This document shows, piece by piece, positions 1 to 11,011 of a stretch of DNA of 64,000 bases. Every line of letters begins with the position of its first letter. Positions within the stretch are counted from its first letter, which is position 1. The notes beneath the pieces are model-generated. The model had not been told where the DNA came from and made no database searches. It saw nothing but the letters and a program-made list of their open reading frames with translations. The DNA is from Candidatus Levyibacteriota bacterium (lineage in GTDB: Bacteria; Patescibacteriota; Microgenomatia; Levybacterales; UBA12049), in the NCBI GenBank assembly GCA_049519175.1, contig JBEKQZ010000001.1, positions 463,679 through 527,678 on the forward strand, given 5' to 3'. Position numbers and translations under genes: made by a program.

Positions 1-279
1 AAAATACTGATAGGAGATTGGAAGAAGCCTTCCATCAAAATCATTCTGAATTATTTTATCTAAAGAATTAAGGAAATTTTTGTCACCATCAATTTTCTTC
101 TCGGTATCTAAACCTTTTTTGATAATTTCTTCTGGAAAATCTCTCAATTTATCTTTATTTTTTTGAAAATATTTAAAAAGAAGGAAGTAAAAAGTTCCTT
201 CGCCATCTATCCCAAATTGTCTTAAATACCTTTCAACCTCTCTAGTTAAGAAGAAAATGTCATCACTCATTTGAGTCAT
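1..279 (-). CDS. hypothetical protein, 3'-truncated at the window edge (N-terminus MTQMSDDIFFLTREVERYLRQFGIDGEGTFYF...)
   Basis: Hand translation of the minus strand from the ATG at 279-277 runs open to position 1 without a stop. It is divergent from the recombinase gene and has the AT-rich island codon usage. Confidence 0.35.
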   Translation of the reverse strand, partial: MTQMSDDIFFLTREVERYLRQFGIDGEGTFYFLLFKYFQKNKDKLRDFPEEIIKKGLDTEKKIDGDKNFLNSLDKIIQNDFDGRLLPISYQYF

Positions 280-401
280 TTTATAATATATACACCCCAA
301 ATTAAAAGCCCCACTTAAAAGAATGAAGTAATAAATTATAAGAAAAGGAACGTATATCCTCCCCTAATTGCATAAATATTAAGGGTTTATTTTTTCATAA
401 G

Positions 402-1106
402 ATGTCTTATAATAAATATATTAATATGACGTTTTCATTAAACCAGCAATCTAATCGTACATCTAAAACCTACTCTTACTTACGTGTTTCCCAAGCATCA
501 CAAGACTTAGAAAAGAACAAATTCGAGATATTGGCACTGGCGAATGCAAAACTTTTAGGAAACGTACAATTCGTTGAAGAAATAATATCTGGCAAGGTGC
601 CTTGGAGAAAAAGGAAAATAGCGGAAATACTTGAAGAGGCTCAAAAAGGAGACGCTCTTATTGTTTCGGAATTATCTCGACTGGGTCGTTCAATGTTAGA
701 AATAATGGAGATATTATCCGTGGCAACTCAAAAAGGATTATCTGTATATTCTGTAAAAGGAAGTTGGGAACTTAACGACTCAATTCAAAGCAAACTCATC
801 GCAATGTGTTTTTCCATGGCAAGTGAAATTGAACGTGATTTGATTTCAAAACGCACGATTGAAGCTTTACAAGCAAGAAAGTTGAGTGGAATGAAACTTG
901 GAAGACCAAAAGGAATTGGAAAATCCAAATTAGACCAATACAGGCCAGAAATCGAGGCGTTGTTAGCAAATGGAAGTAGTCAAAAATTTATTTCAGGTAG
1001 ATACAATACAACACCAGCTAATCTTAATCTATGGTTGAAAAAACATGAAATAAAGAAATCACAAGTTTTTATTTCTAGATCTGAGAAAGTGTCCAGCGGA
1101 ATTTGA
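402..1106 (+). CDS. serine recombinase (resolvase/invertase family)
   Basis: The N-terminal block YLRVSQASQD contains the catalytic-Ser motif of the resolvase N-domain. It has an Arg-rich core and a C-terminal HTH-like segment (GRPKG...). An alternative start lies at 426. Confidence 0.8.
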   Translation: MSYNKYINMTFSLNQQSNRTSKTYSYLRVSQASQDLEKNKFEILALANAKLLGNVQFVEEIISGKVPWRKRKIAEILEEAQKGDALIVSELSRLGRSMLEIMEILSVATQKGLSVYSVKGSWELNDSIQSKLIAMCFSMASEIERDLISKRTIEALQARKLSGMKLGRPKGIGKSKLDQYRPEIEALLANGSSQKFISGRYNTTPANLNLWLKKHEIKKSQVFISRSEKVSSGI

Positions 1107-1151
1107 GTTATTAAAACTAGTTGATTTTTAAGAAGAACCTGACGAGTTTTA

Positions 1152-1370
1152 TTAGAATGAAAACAATTCTTTTAGAGATACCTTTAATTCCTTGGCAAGC
1201 TTACCGATATTATCAAGTGCTGGGTTACGCTCCCCTCTTTCAATGCCAGAAATATAGGTTCTATCGAGTCCAGTTCGAAAACCCAATTCTTCTTGAGAAA
1301 TTTCCACCAGCTTCCTCAAAGCTCTTATTCTTTCACCAAAACTTTTCCTTAACACAGTTGATTTACTCAT
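1152..1370 (-). CDS. XRE-family helix-turn-helix transcriptional regulator
   Basis: The 72-aa protein carries IRALRKLVEISQEELGFRTGLDRTYISGIERGERNP, a classic Cro/CI HTH_3 signature. It is divergent from the downstream repeat-protein gene. Confidence 0.75.
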   Translation of the reverse strand: MSKSTVLRKSFGERIRALRKLVEISQEELGFRTGLDRTYISGIERGERNPALDNIGKLAKELKVSLKELFSF

Positions 1371-1453
1371 GTATACATACTATAATTACCCAAAAGTGGA
1401 TTATTAGTCTACGGAATATAAGTCACAATTCTTTCCGAAAGGAGGTGAAATAT

Positions 1454-2173
1454 ATGGAATCGGAAGTAAAAAAGAAAAACTGGTTTGTTAAACACAAATT
1501 TATTACAGTTTTTTTAGTCATTATTATTGTTTTTGTTATTATCGTAGCATCAAGTGGTAACAACAATTCAGGTAGCTCTAGCAACAGTACGAATACCAAT
1601 AACAATAATCAAAATACATCTGCAACAACACAAGCTACACCAGAAGCACCAGCAACGCGACAAGTTAAAGGTACGGCAACAACATTAAGTACAGGTGACT
1701 TTACTGGTGGTAAAGATGTTGTGGTTGGTTTGTATGACGTTACAACTACTAGTGGTCAAAGTGGTAACTTTATTGTTTCAGGTTCGGACAGTTACGATGA
1801 GATTCTAGGCGTTAGTGACGGACAAGGTGTACCAAATGTAAGAGTACAGATTTCCAACGGCGACCAAATTAAAATATCAGGATTAACTAGCGTCACGTTT
1901 ACGCCTGTATCAACGCCGTTTATTACTACTCATACACCAGTTACGCTTTATGCTGGAACATTTACAGTTGGTCAGGATATTGGTGCTGGTAGGTATGTCG
2001 CAACCACGACAACTGGCAGTAGTGGTAATTTTATAGTATCCGGTATTGACAGTGTCGATGAGATTTTGGGTCAAAGCGATGGGCAAGGCGTACCAAGCGT
2101 TACTACTAACTTAACTGATGGTGATGTTATTAGTATCTCGGGGTTAAGCCAAGTTATTATGACCCCTAAGTAG
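1454..2173 (+). CDS. membrane-anchored surface protein with N/S/T-rich linker and two ~100-aa tandem repeats
   Basis: A strong SD (AAAGGAGGTGAAATAT) lies upstream of the ATG at 1454. The protein has an N-terminal TM segment, a low-complexity NNNSGSSSNSTNTNNNN linker, and two repeats sharing SGNFIVSG.DS.DEILG.SDGQGVP...GD.I.ISGL. The ORF-track start at 1121 was rejected because it overlaps the XRE gene. Confidence 0.6.
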   Translation: MESEVKKKNWFVKHKFITVFLVIIIVFVIIVASSGNNNSGSSSNSTNTNNNNQNTSATTQATPEAPATRQVKGTATTLSTGDFTGGKDVVVGLYDVTTTSGQSGNFIVSGSDSYDEILGVSDGQGVPNVRVQISNGDQIKISGLTSVTFTPVSTPFITTHTPVTLYAGTFTVGQDIGAGRYVATTTTGSSGNFIVSGIDSVDEILGQSDGQGVPSVTTNLTDGDVISISGLSQVIMTPK

Positions 2174-2471
2174 AATACTGTTCAGAATGTTTTTGGACAG
2201 TCAACGTGCAAGTATAATCTTGTCTTTTTTCGGCTGGGCGGGAGCAGTCCTACCCAGAAGAAAGGAGAAAAGTGCAAATGCAGTTCATGATCTAGCGTAT
2301 ATCTGTAGCCTCGTACAATGGCGTACAACAAAAGTTTTGATGAATTTGGCATAAATGGTGTAAGCAATTTTATCGTTTAGACTGCCAATACAATCCAAAA
2401 TCATTATATATCCTTATAGAATTCCTTAGTAAAGTTGTGTTTTAGGTTTATACTATCAGTGTATTAATAAA

Positions 2472-4298
2472 ATGAACTTTGATCCACCAAAATTATATAA
2501 AAGAATTGTTTGCATAAGTGATGACTATATTCTTTCAGCACAACTATCCTCGTGCTTTCACAAGAGAAATACATATTTTGCAGTTTTAGAACCACCACGA
2601 TCTCTTCATAAGTATTGGAGAAATGAATTTATTAAATTAAACAATGTTTTGGCAAAGATAAATGCAGAAAAAATAATTTTCTTAAGCATTAAGGAAGACA
2701 TGATGACGTTAATCAAGGATCAGTTGCATATTCCAGAGAGTAAATACACATATATTGCTGATGAAAAAGAACTTTTAAGATTTTTAGATAAATACAGCAG
2801 CGTTTTTAAAGGAGTTATTGAATGTCCCCCAGATAGAAAGAAGGTTGCTTATGCACTCTTAGAAGCAAAGAGAAAAGAATTTAAACTTTTGATAAAACCT
2901 GAAGCAGAATACAAACCCAAAATTGACAAAGAAAACAATCATTTAATTGCATCGGATTCCATAGACTTATTATTACCCACAATGTTAGCAAATTATGCCT
3001 TTTCAATAAATGCAGACATTAGATTCTTTAAAGGCGAAGCGCATTACTCCCCTAAGGAAATGTATAGCATGATATCTGATACCAGAGGATCGGACGAAAG
3101 AGGCAAAACTGCCAGAGGAGTTAAAAAAGAAATCAAAACAAAACTAGAATCTGAATTAAAAAATATAAATGGTTATGAATTTATTACTTTTTTTACTGAT
3201 GATTTTCAATATGGTTATTTCTTTCCAGATATACCTAATACGCATATTTTTAATAAACTTCTAGTAGGTCAATTTATTGCGGACGCTATTGCGAAACCAT
3301 TTATAGAAGTTGATTCTGCGTTGTTAGTCGATACTGGATTTTTCTCTAATTCAGAAACAGATGATATTAAGGCTTTATTGTTAAAACAAAATGTTTTTAC
3401 TAAAGAGCTTCGCGATGACAAATTTAATAATGTTGATTTGGATAATTTTATTCAGATATATCCGTATGATTTTTTATTCATATGCAGCCATGGAGTATTC
3501 CCCGAAGGCACCCGTTTCAAAATAGGATTTAACGACAGCAAAGGCATAGATCATATTATTGTCGTAGACGTAATTGACTCATTTGGAATAACAGATAAGG
3601 GAGAACCCGATAATCCGATTGTAGATGTAAAAACAACTACGGAATTTGTTGAATTAGACAATCAACCTTGGTATCAAAAAAAATATAAACCCGGTTCGTC
3701 AAAAACAATTGTAGAAGATTTTATAGCTATTGATAGAAAGGACTGGAATGTACTCGAAAAAGAAGATGTAACAATGAACTATAGCAACGTAATCGTAACC
3801 AAAGATAAACTTGGAGCATATATCCCTATGATACATGGCATAGCTGATCCTTTTTCTTCCCCGTTTATATTTAATAATGCTTGCGTATCTACTTATACAA
3901 TGGGTGTAAATTTTATTTTTGCAGGTGCTAGTTTCTATATTGGGACAATAAGAAATGTTAAAGACTCAGTTGCGGTTAAAACTGCCACTATGTTCTTTGA
4001 AAAAACGATCACTCAAAATAAAAGCTTAGCCTTTTCATTATGGGAGGCTCAGGTAGATGCAAAGATTCCGATTGAAGATAGAGTCCACACTTGTGTAGGA
4101 TGCCATTTTCAAAAATTCTCGTTTAATAAAATACAAGATGCCAAGGAATTATTAAAAAATAGAATCATAAGATCTTCAATGATGAGGCTAAGGAGTAGTA
4201 GAAAAAGAGATTTAGAGAAAAATGTTAAAGGGAGACACATTGACGCTATAAAATTTCTTAGAAAAGTTATGTTTTCTATTGTTGCAGAAAGCAGCTAA
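2472..4298 (+). CDS. CHAT/caspase-like cysteine protease domain protein with an uncharacterised ~330-aa N-terminal region
   Basis: The C-terminal half has a hydrophobic strand followed by SHG (DFLFICSHGVF), matching the caspase His motif. A later strand ends in Cys (PFIFNNACVST), and the tail resembles CHAT C-termini (FAGASFYIGTIRNVKDS...SLAFSLWEAQ). The N-terminal half matches nothing recognisable. Confidence 0.5.
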   Translation: MNFDPPKLYKRIVCISDDYILSAQLSSCFHKRNTYFAVLEPPRSLHKYWRNEFIKLNNVLAKINAEKIIFLSIKEDMMTLIKDQLHIPESKYTYIADEKELLRFLDKYSSVFKGVIECPPDRKKVAYALLEAKRKEFKLLIKPEAEYKPKIDKENNHLIASDSIDLLLPTMLANYAFSINADIRFFKGEAHYSPKEMYSMISDTRGSDERGKTARGVKKEIKTKLESELKNINGYEFITFFTDDFQYGYFFPDIPNTHIFNKLLVGQFIADAIAKPFIEVDSALLVDTGFFSNSETDDIKALLLKQNVFTKELRDDKFNNVDLDNFIQIYPYDFLFICSHGVFPEGTRFKIGFNDSKGIDHIIVVDVIDSFGITDKGEPDNPIVDVKTTTEFVELDNQPWYQKKYKPGSSKTIVEDFIAIDRKDWNVLEKEDVTMNYSNVIVTKDKLGAYIPMIHGIADPFSSPFIFNNACVSTYTMGVNFIFAGASFYIGTIRNVKDSVAVKTATMFFEKTITQNKSLAFSLWEAQVDAKIPIEDRVHTCVGCHFQKFSFNKIQDAKELLKNRIIRSSMMRLRSSRKRDLEKNVKGRHIDAIKFLRKVMFSIVAESS

Positions 4299-4305
4299 AC
4301 AAAAT

Positions 4306-4719
4306 TCAATGCCCAAAGACAAAGGTTACTCCTGTTAATCTTAAAACTGCATAAACCGTTATCAGAAAAACTAAATAACCAATAATGAAAGCTGAACCTA
4401 ACGCAGAGATAAAAGCCTCTATTTTCCCATATTTCCTTTTATTAAATACTTTTAGAGACAAATTAAAGATATCGATAGAAAGATAGATAAAAAATAATAT
4501 AGCTGTAATTAAAAGAATTACCAAAAGCACTATGCTTTTGGTAAATAAGAAGGCAAGAAAAATTGTTTCAGAAATTATTAACCATTCTAAAAATCTAAAC
4601 CATTTAGGTGTCATTTCCATAAAAAAATTACTAGTCCTATTTAGTTTACTAATTAAATTGTTAAGCAATTTGCTATTTATAAACTTTGAATATAGCTCGT
4701 GATAATAAGGTAATTTCAT
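4306..4719 (-). CDS. small integral membrane protein (3-4 TM)
   Basis: Hydrophobic 137-aa ORF. It is the last gene of the minus-strand operon and is convergent with the CHAT gene, 7 nt apart. Confidence 0.5.
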   Translation of the reverse strand: MKLPYYHELYSKFINSKLLNNLISKLNRTSNFFMEMTPKWFRFLEWLIISETIFLAFLFTKSIVLLVILLITAILFFIYLSIDIFNLSLKVFNKRKYGKIEAFISALGSAFIIGYLVFLITVYAVLRLTGVTFVFGH

Positions 4720-4750
4720 TGATGAGATTATATCAAATAGGGAAAATTTC

Positions 4751-5401
4751 TTATTGTCTTCTTTGATGTGGAAAAGGAGTTACATTTCTTTTTTCAGCCT
4801 GAGGAAGTCCTCTGTAATATGCTTGATACTCCGTTAGATTGAGAGAATACCATTCATTGTATGCATATCTAGTAAAATATTGTGCAAGCGTTTGTCTAAA
4901 ATGTTCCAATGCTATCTTATTTAGAGTTCCTTTTCTCATCGATGCCAAATTATTTAATAAACTTTCTCTAGGAAGTTGGAATATCGTCTTAAAATCTGCA
5001 GCCATTTTCGTTGTGAATCCTATTCCTTCTGGCAAGTAGTAAAAACTATAGCCTCTTTTAGGAGATGTTTTAATCATTAGGCTAAGGAGTTCATTTTGAT
5101 TTGCTGGAAGAGTAGGTTTGCCCAAAACATTTACTAGGGTATCAATCTTAGCAAATGATATAAATTTCTTCCTTACGTTATCGCAATCTTGTGATATTAC
5201 TATACCTGATGTAGGCACCGCTTTAACAGTAAGGTGAATGTTATCTTGATTCTTAATTTCGGTCCATGTCTTTCTTTGTGGCTCATCTTCTAGATTAATT
5301 GATGCTTCCAATGCATTAAAATCTTCTAAATCAATAAAAGGTAAATCAACAAAAATGTCACCCTGTCTAATTGTTCTTACATTGGTTGCTTTGTAAATCA
5401 C
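4751..5401 (-). CDS. hypothetical protein (216 aa)
   Basis: Long ORF with island codon usage, 5 nt downstream of the preceding operon gene. No recognisable motif except a GIVISQDCDNV segment. Confidence 0.5.
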   Translation of the reverse strand: MIYKATNVRTIRQGDIFVDLPFIDLEDFNALEASINLEDEPQRKTWTEIKNQDNIHLTVKAVPTSGIVISQDCDNVRKKFISFAKIDTLVNVLGKPTLPANQNELLSLMIKTSPKRGYSFYYLPEGIGFTTKMAADFKTIFQLPRESLLNNLASMRKGTLNKIALEHFRQTLAQYFTRYAYNEWYSLNLTEYQAYYRGLPQAEKRNVTPFPHQRRQ

Positions 5402-5406
5402 TGCTC

Positions 5407-5832
5407 TTAAGCATCATCGGAATCTTCATCTAAATATGATGCCAATTGTCCTTCATTGAAAATATCCTCTTTTCTCAATGCCAAAGCACGCTCAAACGAT
5501 TGAGACGCTCTAATATAGGAATCTTTTCTTTTGGGAATAGAATAAAAAGAGGGATATAGTATTACTTCATTATCAAAGAAAGGATTGGGATAATTCGTGT
5601 CTATCTGACCAAATATGCCTTCAAAACCAATGACTCCTAAACTTTGTTCGGGTTGAGTTTTAATGCCCCCAGCCGTTGTAGCTCCAGAGATATATATAGA
5701 CATTGCATCATGTAAGGGTTTCAAGTTTTCCGCCGTGAAACTGTTATTAATGAATCCACCAGTTAATTGATTATTCATCATAGACGAGTCGTCATTAGCT
5801 GTTTCTGTTGCTGATACAGGTGTTATCCACAT
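5407..5832 (-). CDS. hypothetical protein (141 aa, acidic C-terminus)
   Basis: ORF in the operon, 2 nt from the upstream gene. Confidence 0.5.
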   Translation of the reverse strand: MWITPVSATETANDDSSMMNNQLTGGFINNSFTAENLKPLHDAMSIYISGATTAGGIKTQPEQSLGVIGFEGIFGQIDTNYPNPFFDNEVILYPSFYSIPKRKDSYIRASQSFERALALRKEDIFNEGQLASYLDEDSDDA

Positions 5833-5834
5833 GT

Positions 5835-6311
5835 TTATTTAACCTCTCTTTTCTCAACGTTGAAACTTTTAGAGCCAATAATTTTATCATTTAAAAATAC
5901 ATTTAGAGTGTGTTTTCCAATAGCTTTGAATTCAAGATTGCCTATGTCAAGTATTAAGTTTAGTGTTGGCTTTTTCTTCGCAGGTATGTTAGGCGTAGTA
6001 AATTCTGCTTTTATAGGAGGGTCAACAATTAAATTTTCATTATTGGGTCCAGCAATTTTAATTTCTAAAGTATTTTTTATACCTTCCTTGCCTTCAACCC
6101 CGATACTTACAACTGCAGTAAATTTTGGAAGCCTACCTGGAATATCTTGTAGGTAAATTATGCTAAATATCCCAAGCATATTTAATTTACCTGAACCATC
6201 AATAGTTGCAGCATCACACAAGTGAATAAAATTTATCTCAAATTGACTCATAAGGGGATTATACATCAAGACCATAAGTCTATTCAAACTGTCACTAGCT
6301 ATATTGCACAA
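5835..6311 (-). CDS. hypothetical protein (158 aa)
   Basis: ORF in the operon. The antisense ORF 5860..6156 is treated as spurious. Confidence 0.5.
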   Translation of the reverse strand: MCNIASDSLNRLMVLMYNPLMSQFEINFIHLCDAATIDGSGKLNMLGIFSIIYLQDIPGRLPKFTAVVSIGVEGKEGIKNTLEIKIAGPNNENLIVDPPIKAEFTTPNIPAKKKPTLNLILDIGNLEFKAIGKHTLNVFLNDKIIGSKSFNVEKREVK

Positions 6312-6411
6312 TTGATGATTTAAGACGTAACTTAGAAGCTAAATTCCCTACTCTAAGATTCTTTTAAAGCGAATAGCTTACAATTTTAAGAATATTTAAG
6401 CAGTAAAATAT

Positions 6412-7491
6412 TTACTTACTCTTTACATCAATTAGCCTTTTCATAAGATATAAGCTAAATTCTACTGTCATATTTTTAGACAATCTTGCATCTTCAATTT
6501 TTGATTTAAGCCTATGCACGCCCAAATTAGATAAAAAATGTCGCAATGAGATAAGAATATCACCTTGCTCCTGAGAAATTAGCTTATGTTCTATAAAAAA
6601 TTTTGCTACTCTATTAGCATCTTTTTCATCAAGATTTTTACCATCTTTACTATCTATCTCTAATGCTAGCATTTGATATAAACGCTCTGTGAAACTTCTA
6701 ATCAAATCCATGCAGTCCTTATAATCAAAATCATCTGCTGCGTTGACCAACTTTTGTTCTACTTTGTTTAAAGTTGCTGATAAATCGTTGGGGAAGCTAT
6801 ATCTTTTAAATTCTTCTTCTAATTCTAGCTTATCCTTATTTATTTCGGGATTATACCCAGACATTATTTCATTGGTTAAATTTTTTGTAATAATGACATT
6901 AATGGTCTTAAATAATAAATCGAATACTTTTACATGATTTTCATACAAGCTAGAGTAATCGTAGATGGTTTGCCCCAGCTCGTTTCTTCGTTTTACAACA
7001 TCGTCTACCCATGAATCTAGTTCAGAGATTTCGTTAGGCTTGAATATTTGCCTTTCATGTTTAAGAATATCCATAATTTCATCCAATAGAAGAATGGAAT
7101 GGTAATTGGCTCTAGAATCATAATCTGCCTGGTAATTTTGCTTAATAACTGAGAGGGCATCCAAAAATAACCCGAGGTGAATCAACGTATCCAAAGCTGT
7201 GCAACTAGCTAGATATTTCCTGTTTGGCAATAAATATTCCAACAGTAAATTTTTAAACTCTTCTTTTTGTTGTTCTGATAACTGATTGTATAAATCTCTT
7301 AATAAGATAACCTGTTTATTTACAAAATCAAAATCCGATGTGTCTTCTTCTACGATTATTTCGTCATTATTATCAGATCTTGCAACATAATTTTGTTTAT
7401 TACGCACGAGAAGATAATTTGTTTTAGCGGGTTCAATTGAGCTATTTTCTAATATTTTTCTTATCTTAAACTCTAGGTCTGTAGCTGTCAT
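6412..7491 (-). CDS. hypothetical protein (359 aa, largely alpha-helical)
   Basis: First gene of the minus-strand operon. Its C-terminal region LISLRHFLSNLGVHRLKSK is weakly reminiscent of Abi/HEPN-type proteins; this is an inference only. Confidence 0.5.
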   Translation of the reverse strand: MTATDLEFKIRKILENSSIEPAKTNYLLVRNKQNYVARSDNNDEIIVEEDTSDFDFVNKQVILLRDLYNQLSEQQKEEFKNLLLEYLLPNRKYLASCTALDTLIHLGLFLDALSVIKQNYQADYDSRANYHSILLLDEIMDILKHERQIFKPNEISELDSWVDDVVKRRNELGQTIYDYSSLYENHVKVFDLLFKTINVIITKNLTNEIMSGYNPEINKDKLELEEEFKRYSFPNDLSATLNKVEQKLVNAADDFDYKDCMDLIRSFTERLYQMLALEIDSKDGKNLDEKDANRVAKFFIEHKLISQEQGDILISLRHFLSNLGVHRLKSKIEDARLSKNMTVEFSLYLMKRLIDVKSK

Positions 7492-7633
7492 ATTATAAAA
7501 TTTCTTGACCCAATAATAGCAGGAATTTTATTCTTATACAAACAAGAAGTTGCATTTTTATAAGGATTTTGCTAACCTTTTATAAGGAATTTTGAGTTCT
7601 TGTAGGCAGAACCCTGTGTTTGCAAGGAGAAGG

Positions 7634-7660
7634 CAAAGGGTTCGACTCCCTCCGCCCGCT
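7634..7660 (+). other. orphan tRNA 3' fragment (T-arm plus acceptor 3' strand), candidate att site remnant
   Basis: aaGGG-TTCGACT-CCCtc followed by cgcccgc-t has T-stem/loop and acceptor-strand geometry. No complementary 5' acceptor strand or D/anticodon arms lie upstream. It coincides with the GC shift at the island boundary. Confidence 0.3.
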
Positions 7661-7750
7661 CATCATAAAGTCAGATCATAAAAAGCGTAGCTCAAGACTC
7701 AGCCTCAAAAACTTGACAAAAAGCCTAAAATCTGCCAGTCTTATTTATCA

Positions 7751-8329
7751 ATGAGAAAAGTCTTCCTGCTCACTGCGTTTACGCTTTTAACTCCATTTGT
7801 TTTGGTTTTAACTTTGTCCCTTCTAATCTATACCTGCTCACTAAAGAATAATTTATTAATGTTTAGTAAAAATCCACGCGTTGCTTACGCCGCACTCCCT
7901 CCGGCTTCGGGTTCTTTACAAATGACTATTGTCGCCCAGGACGCCAGAGTAATGGTGGTCAAAGATTTTCTGAAAAGATACAACTCGGACCTTCTACCTT
8001 ATGCCCAAAATATCATTAACGCGGCCGATAAATACAACCTTGATTATAGGCTCGTTCCGGCCATCGCCATGCAGGAATCAAATCTTTGCCATAAAGCCCC
8101 CAAGAACTCACATAATTGTTGGGGATTTGCCATTTACGGTAAAAATGTCTTAAAGTTTAATAATTATGCCGATGCAATCAATACTGTGACAAAAACATTG
8201 GCAATTCAGTATAAACAACAAGGACTGGAAACGCCGGAACAGATAATGACCAAATATACTCCCGGTAGTAATGGCAGCTGGGCCAAAAGCGTTAGCTATT
8301 TCATGACCCAACTCACAGTTAGCCTATAG
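7751..8329 (+). CDS. secreted GH73-like peptidoglycan hydrolase (glucosaminidase domain)
   Basis: N-terminal TM/signal. AADKYNLDYRLVPAIAMQESN...HNCWGFAIYG resembles the mannosyl-glycoprotein endo-beta-N-acetylglucosaminidase core. It is a paralog of the next gene. Confidence 0.45.
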   Translation: MRKVFLLTAFTLLTPFVLVLTLSLLIYTCSLKNNLLMFSKNPRVAYAALPPASGSLQMTIVAQDARVMVVKDFLKRYNSDLLPYAQNIINAADKYNLDYRLVPAIAMQESNLCHKAPKNSHNCWGFAIYGKNVLKFNNYADAINTVTKTLAIQYKQQGLETPEQIMTKYTPGSNGSWAKSVSYFMTQLTVSL

Positions 8330-8385: not shown

Positions 8386-8991
8386 ATGTCTTTCCAAATA
8401 CATACGTTAGGATTTTTTAATGGTCGAAAGACCAAAAACAATATGAAGAATATCATATTGCTCGCCCTGATGGCAGCAATAATCCTTATTCCTCAAAAAG
8501 CATACGCTCAAGAGTCCTCTGCATCTTCCGCAAATATCCAACTCCCAACAGTCGCAAAGACGGGAGTCGATAACCGTGTCAAAATTTTGACTAGCTATCT
8601 AAATCAGTATGATTCTCCTTTGGCGCCTTACGCTTCCGACTTTGTCGCGGCGGCCGATAAATATAACCTTGACTGGAGGCTGGTAGCCGCTATTTCAGGC
8701 GTAGAATCAACTTTTGGCAAGGAAATACCAGTTAATTCGTATAACGCCTGGGGTTGGGGAATATATGGCGACAATGTTATCGATTTTAAATCTTGGGACG
8801 ATGGCATCGAAACTGTTTCGCAAGGTTTAAGAGATAAATATATAGATCAATGGGGTGGACAAGATATCTATCAAATTGGGGCAATGTATGCCGCTTCACC
8901 CGCTTGGGCTGGACATGTTGAATTATATCTAGATAACATCCAAACATTTGCACTAAACGATCCTCAAGACACCCTTTCGATTTCTTTGTAA
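8386..8991 (+). CDS. secreted GH73-like peptidoglycan hydrolase (paralog)
   Basis: AADKYNLDWRLVAAISGVEST...YNAWGWGIYG matches the glucosaminidase core. A signal peptide MKNIILLALMAAIILIPQKAYAQ suggests the true start may be 8443. Confidence 0.45.
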   Translation: MSFQIHTLGFFNGRKTKNNMKNIILLALMAAIILIPQKAYAQESSASSANIQLPTVAKTGVDNRVKILTSYLNQYDSPLAPYASDFVAAADKYNLDWRLVAAISGVESTFGKEIPVNSYNAWGWGIYGDNVIDFKSWDDGIETVSQGLRDKYIDQWGGQDIYQIGAMYAASPAWAGHVELYLDNIQTFALNDPQDTLSISL

Positions 8992-10631: not shown

Positions 10632-10716
10632 AGTTTTACCAAATGAAATCTTTATTTATTGTCAAGTTCCTTATTAACGCCTAAACGGCGGGAATTGACT
10701 TGTAATAAAGACATAC

Positions 10717-10740
10717 CCGCCTGACAAGGGCGGTTTTTTT
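10717..10740 (+). terminator. intrinsic terminator (CCGCC-tgacaag-GGCGG followed by T7), with a competing upstream GGCGGG antiterminator pairing
   Basis: A 5-bp GC stem with a 7-nt loop is followed by seven T residues. GGCGGG at 10687-10692 can pair with CCCGCC at 10716-10721, and that pairing excludes the terminator. Confidence 0.5.
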
Positions 10741-10815
10741 ATGGAACGGAGCGAATGAAATTTGCGAGTTCGCCTGCAAGCGAAGCGGACAGGCGAGGGT
10801 AGGAGGTGAAATATT

Positions 10816-11007
10816 ATGGCAAGATTAGAAGAAAAAGTAACAGAACGCTTAGGGGTATGGGCAGATGACCCACGTTCTGTTGCAGGAGCAGATGCCATAA
10901 GAGCAGCTTCGGAATACAGACAAACTATGTTGGGACGTTTAGAAAAAAGGGTTGGCGCACCAAGAACGCCACAGCCTATGGAACCAGGACAAGAATATCG
11001 AGTTTAA
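10816..11007 (+). CDS. hypothetical small protein (63 aa)
   Basis: A strong SD (AGGAGGTGAAATATT) lies before the ATG. The region is GC-rich and the aa composition is A/R/G-rich, unlike neighbouring genes. Confidence 0.4.
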   Translation: MARLEEKVTERLGVWADDPRSVAGADAIRAASEYRQTMLGRLEKRVGAPRTPQPMEPGQEYRV

Positions 11008-11011
11008 TAAA

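Follow-up and report, generated by a model that had tools for sequence, protein, structure and literature searches.

Does a protease gene that runs end to end into a compact group of five oppositely oriented genes belong with them to one defence system, or do the six genes only share an address? The question is raised by positions 2472-7491 of a 64,000-nucleotide (nt) stretch, hereafter the window, of contig JBEKQZ010000001.1 from a Candidatus Levyibacteriota bacterium (assembly GCA_049519175.1). An earlier note had proposed that a gene for a CHAT/caspase-like protease of 608 amino acids (aa) and a five-gene operon convergent with it form a single uncharacterised defence or conflict system. 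The reading favoured here, with a probability of about 0.7, is that of a mobile island in a tRNA-Gly gene whose conflict-type cargo is independent and falls into three separate units, not one system: (i) the protease, (ii) a three-gene operon that ends in a MazF-fold protein, and (iii) a stand-alone helical protein. Coordinates are positions within the window; those prefixed L177 refer to a contig fetched to its left, from which the window coordinate is obtained by subtracting 9599.

A re-check of the open reading frames (ORFs) returned the six genes with the sizes and spacings described earlier. The 608-aa gene (2472-4298) is on the plus strand, and its stop codon lies 7 nt from that of the convergent group. 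The five minus-strand genes encode, in order of transcription, proteins of 359 aa (6412-7491), 158 aa (5835-6311), 141 aa (5407-5832), 216 aa (4751-5401) and 137 aa (4306-4719), with gaps of 2 nt (158/141-aa), 5 nt (141/216-aa) and 31 nt (216/137-aa). An additional space of 100 nt, or of 136 nt if the 158-aa gene starts at the ATG of the public gene call, separates the 359-aa and 158-aa genes.

Co-occurrence of these genes was followed in 87 loci of the CHAT family (contigs L001-L008, which encode the relatives in five independent contexts, and 79 metagenome loci; grouping at 90% identity leaves 68), in 80 of the 216-aa family and in five of the 359-aa family. In none of the 87 loci was the CHAT-family gene accompanied, over a distance of about 8 kb, by a relative of the 137-, 141-, 158-, 216- or 359-aa proteins, or of the TIGR04255 family discussed below. 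No CHAT relative was detected in the 80 loci of the 216-aa family or in the five of the 359-aa family, and the former were likewise devoid of relatives of the 359-, 158-, 141- and 137-aa proteins. A lack of co-conservation, which the earlier note had named beforehand as refuting, is thus what was found, and the proposal that the CHAT gene and the five genes are one system fails on that account. The five-gene operon does not hold together either; it is a composite of at least two independent units, the 359-aa gene alone and the three genes for the 158-, 141- and 216-aa proteins.

The element that carries these genes is delimited by tRNA genes. On the left side the order is tRNA-Val, tRNA-Phe, a 5' half of tRNA-Gly (L177:5205-5238), an intact tRNA-Gly(GCC) gene (L177:5289-5361) and a tyrosine integrase, followed past the integrase by small unknown genes, a type I-like specificity subunit with an N6 methylase, and a resolvase. 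On the right side, a 3' fragment of a tRNA-Gly(GCC) gene (7623-7661, plus strand) forms the attR-like junction; joined to the 5' remnant at their common CAAGGAGA core, it gives a perfect 73-nt tRNA-Gly(GCC) as judged by ARAGORN. The GC content is 0.27-0.37 over the roughly 12 kb between the tRNA fragments and 0.40-0.46 outside; in the window itself it is 0.30-0.35 over positions 1-8000 and about 0.40-0.43 further on, which bears out the low-GC island described earlier. A split target tRNA, an integrase at one end and a deviant composition together mark a genomic island. Because the tRNA-Gly fragments rejoin perfectly, the element has its own tRNA and integrase, and its GC content deviates, the flagged genes are cargo in the right-hand part of a roughly 12-kb element integrated into tRNA-Gly(GCC) and provided with its own replacement copy of that tRNA.

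In its split tRNA, adjacent tyrosine integrase, deviant GC content and accessory or defence-type cargo the island resembles other tRNA-targeting integrative islands, whereas it departs from the usual ones in carrying a complete replacement tRNA-Gly, beyond regenerating the 3' end. No papers on such islands in bacteria of the candidate phyla radiation (CPR), to which the host belongs, were found, although no dedicated literature search was made. A search of the island for an RNA antitoxin or other RNA element gave no Rfam match and no tandem repeats. A phage-structural or phage-borne origin of the cargo was considered and rejected: PHROGs returned weak matches of unknown function, and 2.9 million viral contigs contained one CHAT-family relative and no relatives of the 216-aa or 359-aa proteins. 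The 216-aa protein also matched nothing in PLSDB plasmids, nor did the 158-aa protein in GenBank phages. The idea of a conflict-type setting was sound in part, in that a MazF-fold module, methylase genes and recombinases reside on an integrated island; the idea of a single system within it was not.

The 608-aa protein comprises an N-terminal alpha/beta portion (residues about 1-280), a caspase-like domain (about 280-555) and a C-terminal helical hairpin. It includes the motifs FICSHG (336-341) and FIFNNAC (465-471), of which SHG and NAC had been pointed out before. These supply a catalytic-type dyad, His340 (nt 3489-3491), which comes after the beta-strand 334-337 (ICSHG), and Cys471 (nt 3882-3884), which comes after the strand 465-468 (FNNAC). 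Both residues and the subsequent AGAxxYIGT motif are invariant in an alignment of 28 relatives with identities down to 23%. A database search with the protein yielded 44 relatives, and every named one is from Patescibacteria. The AlphaFold2 model based on the 28-relative alignment is confident (predicted local distance difference test, pLDDT, 88.7; predicted template modelling score, pTM, 0.89) and has the caspase-hemoglobinase alpha/beta fold of clan CD. The protein scores 15.5 bits against Pfam CHAT (PF12770), below the gathering cut-off of 24; weak CHAT matches occur in 15 of the 28 relatives (best expectation value, E, 9.3e-7). PADLOC had no match, PHROGs offered nothing useful, NCBIfam gave only a far-sub-threshold chance match, and the family profile matched no solved structure by sequence, CHAT chains included. 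The caspase/CHAT fold suggested in the earlier note is thus upheld by the modelled fold and the conserved dyad, though below the Pfam threshold: the protein is a divergent branch of the clan-CD type, placed at the level of the predicted fold, with peptidase activity predicted. The model aligns structurally over long stretches (about 250 residues) with gingipain, separase and CHAT proteins, which suggests that a pseudo-caspase region precedes the active one. Since no hydrophobic segment was detected, the protein is suggested to be cytoplasmic.

With the SAVED-CHAT proteins of type III CRISPR, Csx29 (TPR-CHAT) of type III-E, separase and the gingipains, the 608-aa protein has in common the caspase-hemoglobinase fold and a dyad in the order His then Cys. 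Unlike the CHAT proteases known from defence, it is the product of one gene and has an unrecognised N-terminal region of its own; a Pfam scan recognised no sensor domain in it, SAVED and TPR included. Neither the Cas7-11 partner of type III-E Craspase, nor the SAVED/cyclase partner of SAVED-CHAT systems, nor the gasdermin of gasdermin-protease pairs is linked to it, and no Cas, cyclase or gasdermin neighbour, indeed no conserved neighbour at all, was detected in the 68 non-redundant loci of the family. The likeness to CHAT defence proteases is therefore one of fold only, and the protein is placed under no known system.

When ORFs within 3 kb of the CHAT-family genes were clustered, the only recurrent families were XRE regulators (six groups), serine recombinases (four) and a 301-aa protein (three). 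Because the five opposite-strand families never co-occur with it and only these three neighbour families recur, the 608-aa gene is a stand-alone unit with no obligatory partner gene. One of the contexts has an AlwI-like restriction gene and two methylases adjoining the CHAT-family gene, and another has conjugation-type genes; such recombinase, restriction and conjugation contexts are consistent with an accessory, mobile gene. A CHAT-like subgroup (P0010, P0012-P0018 and P0022; e.g., L001:8001-10535) is longer, at about 840 aa, through an N-terminal extension of roughly 235 residues that has no detected relatives and shows no homology to the genes next to the short forms. The single relative among the viral contigs (L178:7382-9220, 28% identity) lies on a putatively viral contig of 10.5 kb.

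The 359-aa gene (6412-7491, minus strand) encodes a stand-alone all-helical protein that is not part of the three-gene operon. Its family includes 53 close relatives and extends to 610 clusters at E up to 1e-3. The relatives examined in their neighbourhoods (L013-L017) occur by themselves in three independent contexts, one in Actinomycetia, one in Shapirobacteria and one other, and no other gene of the window was found near them. Conservation is strong in the C-terminal roughly 140 residues, and N214, D220, R265, H326, R336, N340 and E344 are near-invariant in 99 distant members; the N-terminal half is weakly TPR/HEAT-like (match to a designed TPR, E 0.0085). A HEPN assignment was tried on account of an RHFLSNxGSHR motif and of weak matches to DUF4145, a HEPN family (PMC3710099), in 4 of 26 close members (E 0.029 or worse). 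It was rejected, as none of the 99 distant members matches HEPN-clan models and R317 of the Rx4-6H motif is not conserved in the wider family.

The 216-aa protein (4751-5401, minus strand) is the candidate toxin of the three-gene operon. Its AlphaFold2 model is confident (pLDDT 87.8), and in an independent Foldseek check the best 50 matches were all MazF chains; the protein is accordingly modelled as having the MazF/CcdB/Kid toxin fold, to which are added roughly 40 residues inserted behind the first strand and a conserved helical extension at the C-terminus. The invariant positions of the family are concentrated in RQGDIF, ISQDCD, R145, R156, HFRE and RRYPYNEWY. The family counts 45 close relatives and 89 members confirmed among species-representative genomes, of which 80 loci (tblastn, 1e-27 to 1e-41) were retained for neighbourhood counts. 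Its hosts include Planctomycetota, Chloroflexota, Desulfobacterota, Acidobacteriota, Actinomycetota and Saccharibacteria, as well as six archaea (Heimdallarchaeota, Promethearchaeum, Methanothrix, Methanosarcinales, Methanocellaceae and Methanocrinis). No model in Pfam, NCBIfam or PADLOC covers the family. The earlier impression that the five minus-strand products match nothing recognisable needs correcting for the 158-aa protein, which belongs to DUF6941 (Pfam, E 2.8e-21).

The neighbourhoods of the 216-aa family define a recurrent triad. In 65 of the 80 loci, from bacteria and archaea, a TIGR04255-type gene, a small ORF (109-148 aa) and the 216-aa relative follow one another on one strand. 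The TIGR04255-type gene, recognised by a profile built from three proteins confirmed by NCBIfam (E 1e-24 to 1e-31), encodes about 260 aa and lies 330-480 nt upstream of the 216-type gene, and the small ORF usually occupies the space. Four of the 15 loci that deviate are truncated contigs, and the rest, mostly archaeal, carry two small upstream genes, as the window does. An ORF of at least 80 aa abuts the 216-type gene upstream in 69 of the 80 loci, most often with a 4-nt overlap. The small proteins are variable at the N-terminus and alike at the C-terminus, where they have a helix (GRxISxxEAxxxAxxxLxxAE) and an acidic tail: their last 12 residues carry a mean net charge of -2.6, compared to +0.5 in background ORFs, and this charge is -3 or below in 49% of the small proteins and in 5.5% of the background.

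The operon of the window follows the same layout. Its 141-aa protein (5407-5832, minus strand; isoelectric point, pI, 4.2), the candidate antitoxin, ends in the tail LASYLDEDSDDA with a net charge of -5, and its gene stops just ahead of the 216-aa gene. The first gene, DUF6941 (5835-6311, minus strand; probable start at 6275, giving 146 aa), stands immediately before it in the position that TIGR04255 occupies elsewhere. The 216-aa protein is basic in the window (pI 9.3) next to its acidic neighbour, and the pairing of an acidic antitoxin with a basic toxin is usual (PMC4803016). The DUF6941/141-aa/216-aa operon is a variant of the widespread triad of TIGR04255, small acidic-tailed protein and MazF-fold protein. 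A 601-aa SIR2_2 protein that matches the pAgo-associated SIR2 models of PADLOC (3.6e-8) is encoded directly upstream of one such triad (L010:2874-4679). There is about an even chance that the triad functions like a tripartite type II toxin-antitoxin (TA) or abortive-infection module.

Several results weigh against these assignments. The operon of the window is an outlier of the triad, since hhalign gives no relation between DUF6941 and TIGR04255 and no further DUF6941-led triad was found. The idea that DUF6941 is a half-size relative of TIGR04255 was rejected on the same comparison; DUF6941 was likewise rejected for the first genes of the archaeal variants, which have no Pfam match. When the 141-aa protein is aligned with the small-protein profile, it falls on the right helix, at a non-significant E of 0.18. 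The 216-aa protein has no match in Pfam, PemK_toxin and CcdB included, at E up to 1, and comparisons of its family with three MazF/PemK sequences were not significant (E 0.19-0.76). Two of the three gave short collinear pieces of MazF motifs, QGDIF with QYDIF and LExxR..RxGRL with LLEQIRTIDKQRL, and nothing meaningful aligned with E. coli MazF. Catalytic residues are not mappable, and a gyrase poison, CcdB, is built on the same fold. A basic MazF-fold protein is, moreover, not the rule in the family as a whole (median pI 5.4). PADLOC models match neither the triad nor any other part of the locus, and the defence role is one that we infer from context. Searches by sequence against solved structures gave no link for the 216-aa profile, the TIGR04255 profile or DUF6941, and no paper was found that mentions TIGR04255 or DUF6941.

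Compared to MazEF, Kis-Kid and CcdAB, the triad has in common the predicted toxin fold and a small, upstream, acidic-tailed partner whose gene abuts or overlaps that of the toxin. It differs in that the 216-aa protein is twice as large, owing to the insertion and to the helical extension (HFRE...RRYPYNEWY), lacks significant sequence similarity to those toxins, and is accompanied by a fixed third, larger gene (TIGR04255, here DUF6941); the small partner is also without a recognisable DNA-binding domain. Three-gene type II loci have been reviewed, including toxin-antitoxin-chaperone, paaR-paaA-parE and pasABC (PMC4803016). The triad is likewise a three-gene operon with a third protein beside a candidate TA pair, whereas its third gene comes first in the operon and no SecB-like or helix-turn-helix regulator was detected in it. 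The MazF-fold family is a new and enlarged form of an established toxin fold, and no description of its three-gene layout was found.

The reading of this locus is then as follows. An island inserted into tRNA-Gly(GCC), bringing with it an intact tRNA-Gly, the tyrosine integrase, the methylase/specificity pair, the resolvase and an XRE regulator. In its first unit, and less firmly than for the second, the N-terminal alpha/beta regions of the 608-aa protein may keep the protease inactive until a trigger is met, and the protease could then act in some conflict of the element with its host or with phage. In the second unit, the MazF-fold protein would target nucleic acid as a toxin. MazE neutralises MazF; the small acidic-tailed protein would neutralise the 216-aa toxin through its C-terminal helix and acidic tail, with the exchangeable first gene, DUF6941 or TIGR04255, providing a regulator or sensor. 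The third unit, the 359-aa gene, stands apart and encodes a lone helical protein. A more ambitious combination, in which the triad is a new tripartite TA or abortive-infection system, widespread in bacteria and in archaea, Asgard lineages among them, with the first gene as trigger sensor, and the 608-aa family is a self-contained, single-gene immune protease of the CPR, is tentative and somewhat unlikely as a whole.

Other explanations of the locus were weighed against that of an island with independent units. A single co-functional, uncharacterised defence or signalling system uniting the CHAT protease with the five genes that converge on it is very improbable in view of the complete lack of co-occurrence in the 87, 80 and 5 loci, of the separate distributions of the units into which the five genes divide, and of the convergent orientation, because of which the CHAT gene is not co-transcribed with them. 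The CHAT-like protease might instead regulate the mobile element, cleaving an XRE-type repressor to activate it; the analogy is to ImmA/ImmR of ICEBs1. Of 25 non-redundant loci with good flanks, 6 do have an XRE homologue no more than 2 kb from the CHAT-family gene, as does the window; in L122 it precedes that gene by 70 nt on the same strand, in L007 it is 4 nt from the stop, and large serine recombinases are present in 12 of the 87 loci. However, 19 of the 25 loci have no such XRE gene, distance and orientation are inconstant, mobile elements in general abound in XRE genes, and many loci lack a recombinase; repressor cleavage is thus an improbable role for the family.

A further alternative concerns the triad, whose MazF fold could be a harmless domain that binds nucleic acid or protein within some regulatory or phage-related complex, with no part in TA or defence. 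The missing MazF/PemK match at the sequence level, the mostly acidic pI across the 216-aa family, the lack of PADLOC matches and the prophage-like context of one locus (L011, with Mom, FtsK_gamma and M23 peptidase) speak for it. Set against these are the tight succession of a small partner and a MazF-fold gene, which with its modal 4-nt overlap is the classic type II arrangement, the patchy spread over phyla and domains, and the absence of the triad from the viral contigs; the module of the window, furthermore, resides on an integrated island, and that of L010 adjoins the SIR2 gene that matches pAgo-associated models. A non-toxic role is accordingly judged unlikely, though less so than repressor cleavage by the protease, and the island with three independent units is retained as the preferred reading.

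The remaining minus-strand gene is hard to assign to any unit. The 137-aa ORF (4306-4719; 104 aa in the public call) is hydrophobic, with three to four hydrophobic segments, as expected of the small membrane protein that had been proposed; its standing as a gene is nonetheless questioned because a strong terminator-like hairpin (4518-4544, minus strand) sits within it. The hairpin, found by pattern scan and RNA folding about 210 nt downstream of the 216-aa gene, has a perfect 12-bp stem, a 3-nt loop and a U-rich tail; it folds at -14.5 kcal/mol (z -3.3), a value equalled in 1 of 200 shuffles, and may be the terminator of the minus-strand operon. No relative of the ORF was found in about 170 loci, and it is a doubtful gene, probably part of no conserved module.

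Upstream of the protease, the serine recombinase and XRE regulator of the earlier description are confirmed by Pfam. The recombinase (402-1106, plus strand) is a small enzyme of the resolvase type (234 aa; Resolvase, 2.1e-26), either island cargo or a mobility gene, and the XRE-family helix-turn-helix regulator (1152-1370, minus strand) has 72 aa (HTH_3, 8.6e-17). Divergent from the latter is a gene of the public call for a 239-aa membrane-anchored protein (1454-2173, plus strand; hydrophobic segment at residues 9-39), whose relative in L002 (3e-11), annotated as DUF4352, likewise adjoins an XRE gene. This divergent pair of XRE regulator and single-pass membrane protein (1152-2173) recurs at L002:2456-3450, about 4.5-5 kb upstream of a CHAT-family gene. 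On the left part of the island, L177:8141-9878 holds genes for a 355-aa N6 adenine methylase and for a 227-aa protein resembling a type I specificity subunit; no restriction subunit was called near them, and the pair may be an orphan or incomplete restriction-modification system. Immediately outside the island, at 7751-8329 and 8386-8991, lies a paralogous gene pair with weak similarity to SLT or glucosaminidase cell-wall hydrolases and a common 44-nt stretch that is 80% identical. Farther on, directly ahead of a tRNA-Val gene, overlapping Arg/Ala/Pro-rich ORFs on both strands (10640-11010) suggest non-coding or structured sequence, not genes; no credible Rfam match was obtained for this segment.

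The locus shows that adjacency within a low-GC island is no evidence of a system, as three neighbours here are distributed separately. Two leads come out of it. One is an unannotated MazF-fold family, encoded in a three-gene operon and spread over bacteria and archaea, with no fewer than 89 species-representative genomes. The second is a family of stand-alone, caspase-like proteases whose named members are all Patescibacteria; no paper linking CHAT proteases with Patescibacteria was found in the library searched. CPR bacteria are episymbionts with small genomes, and a cleanly bounded tRNA-Gly island with such cargo provides a concrete example for their biology.

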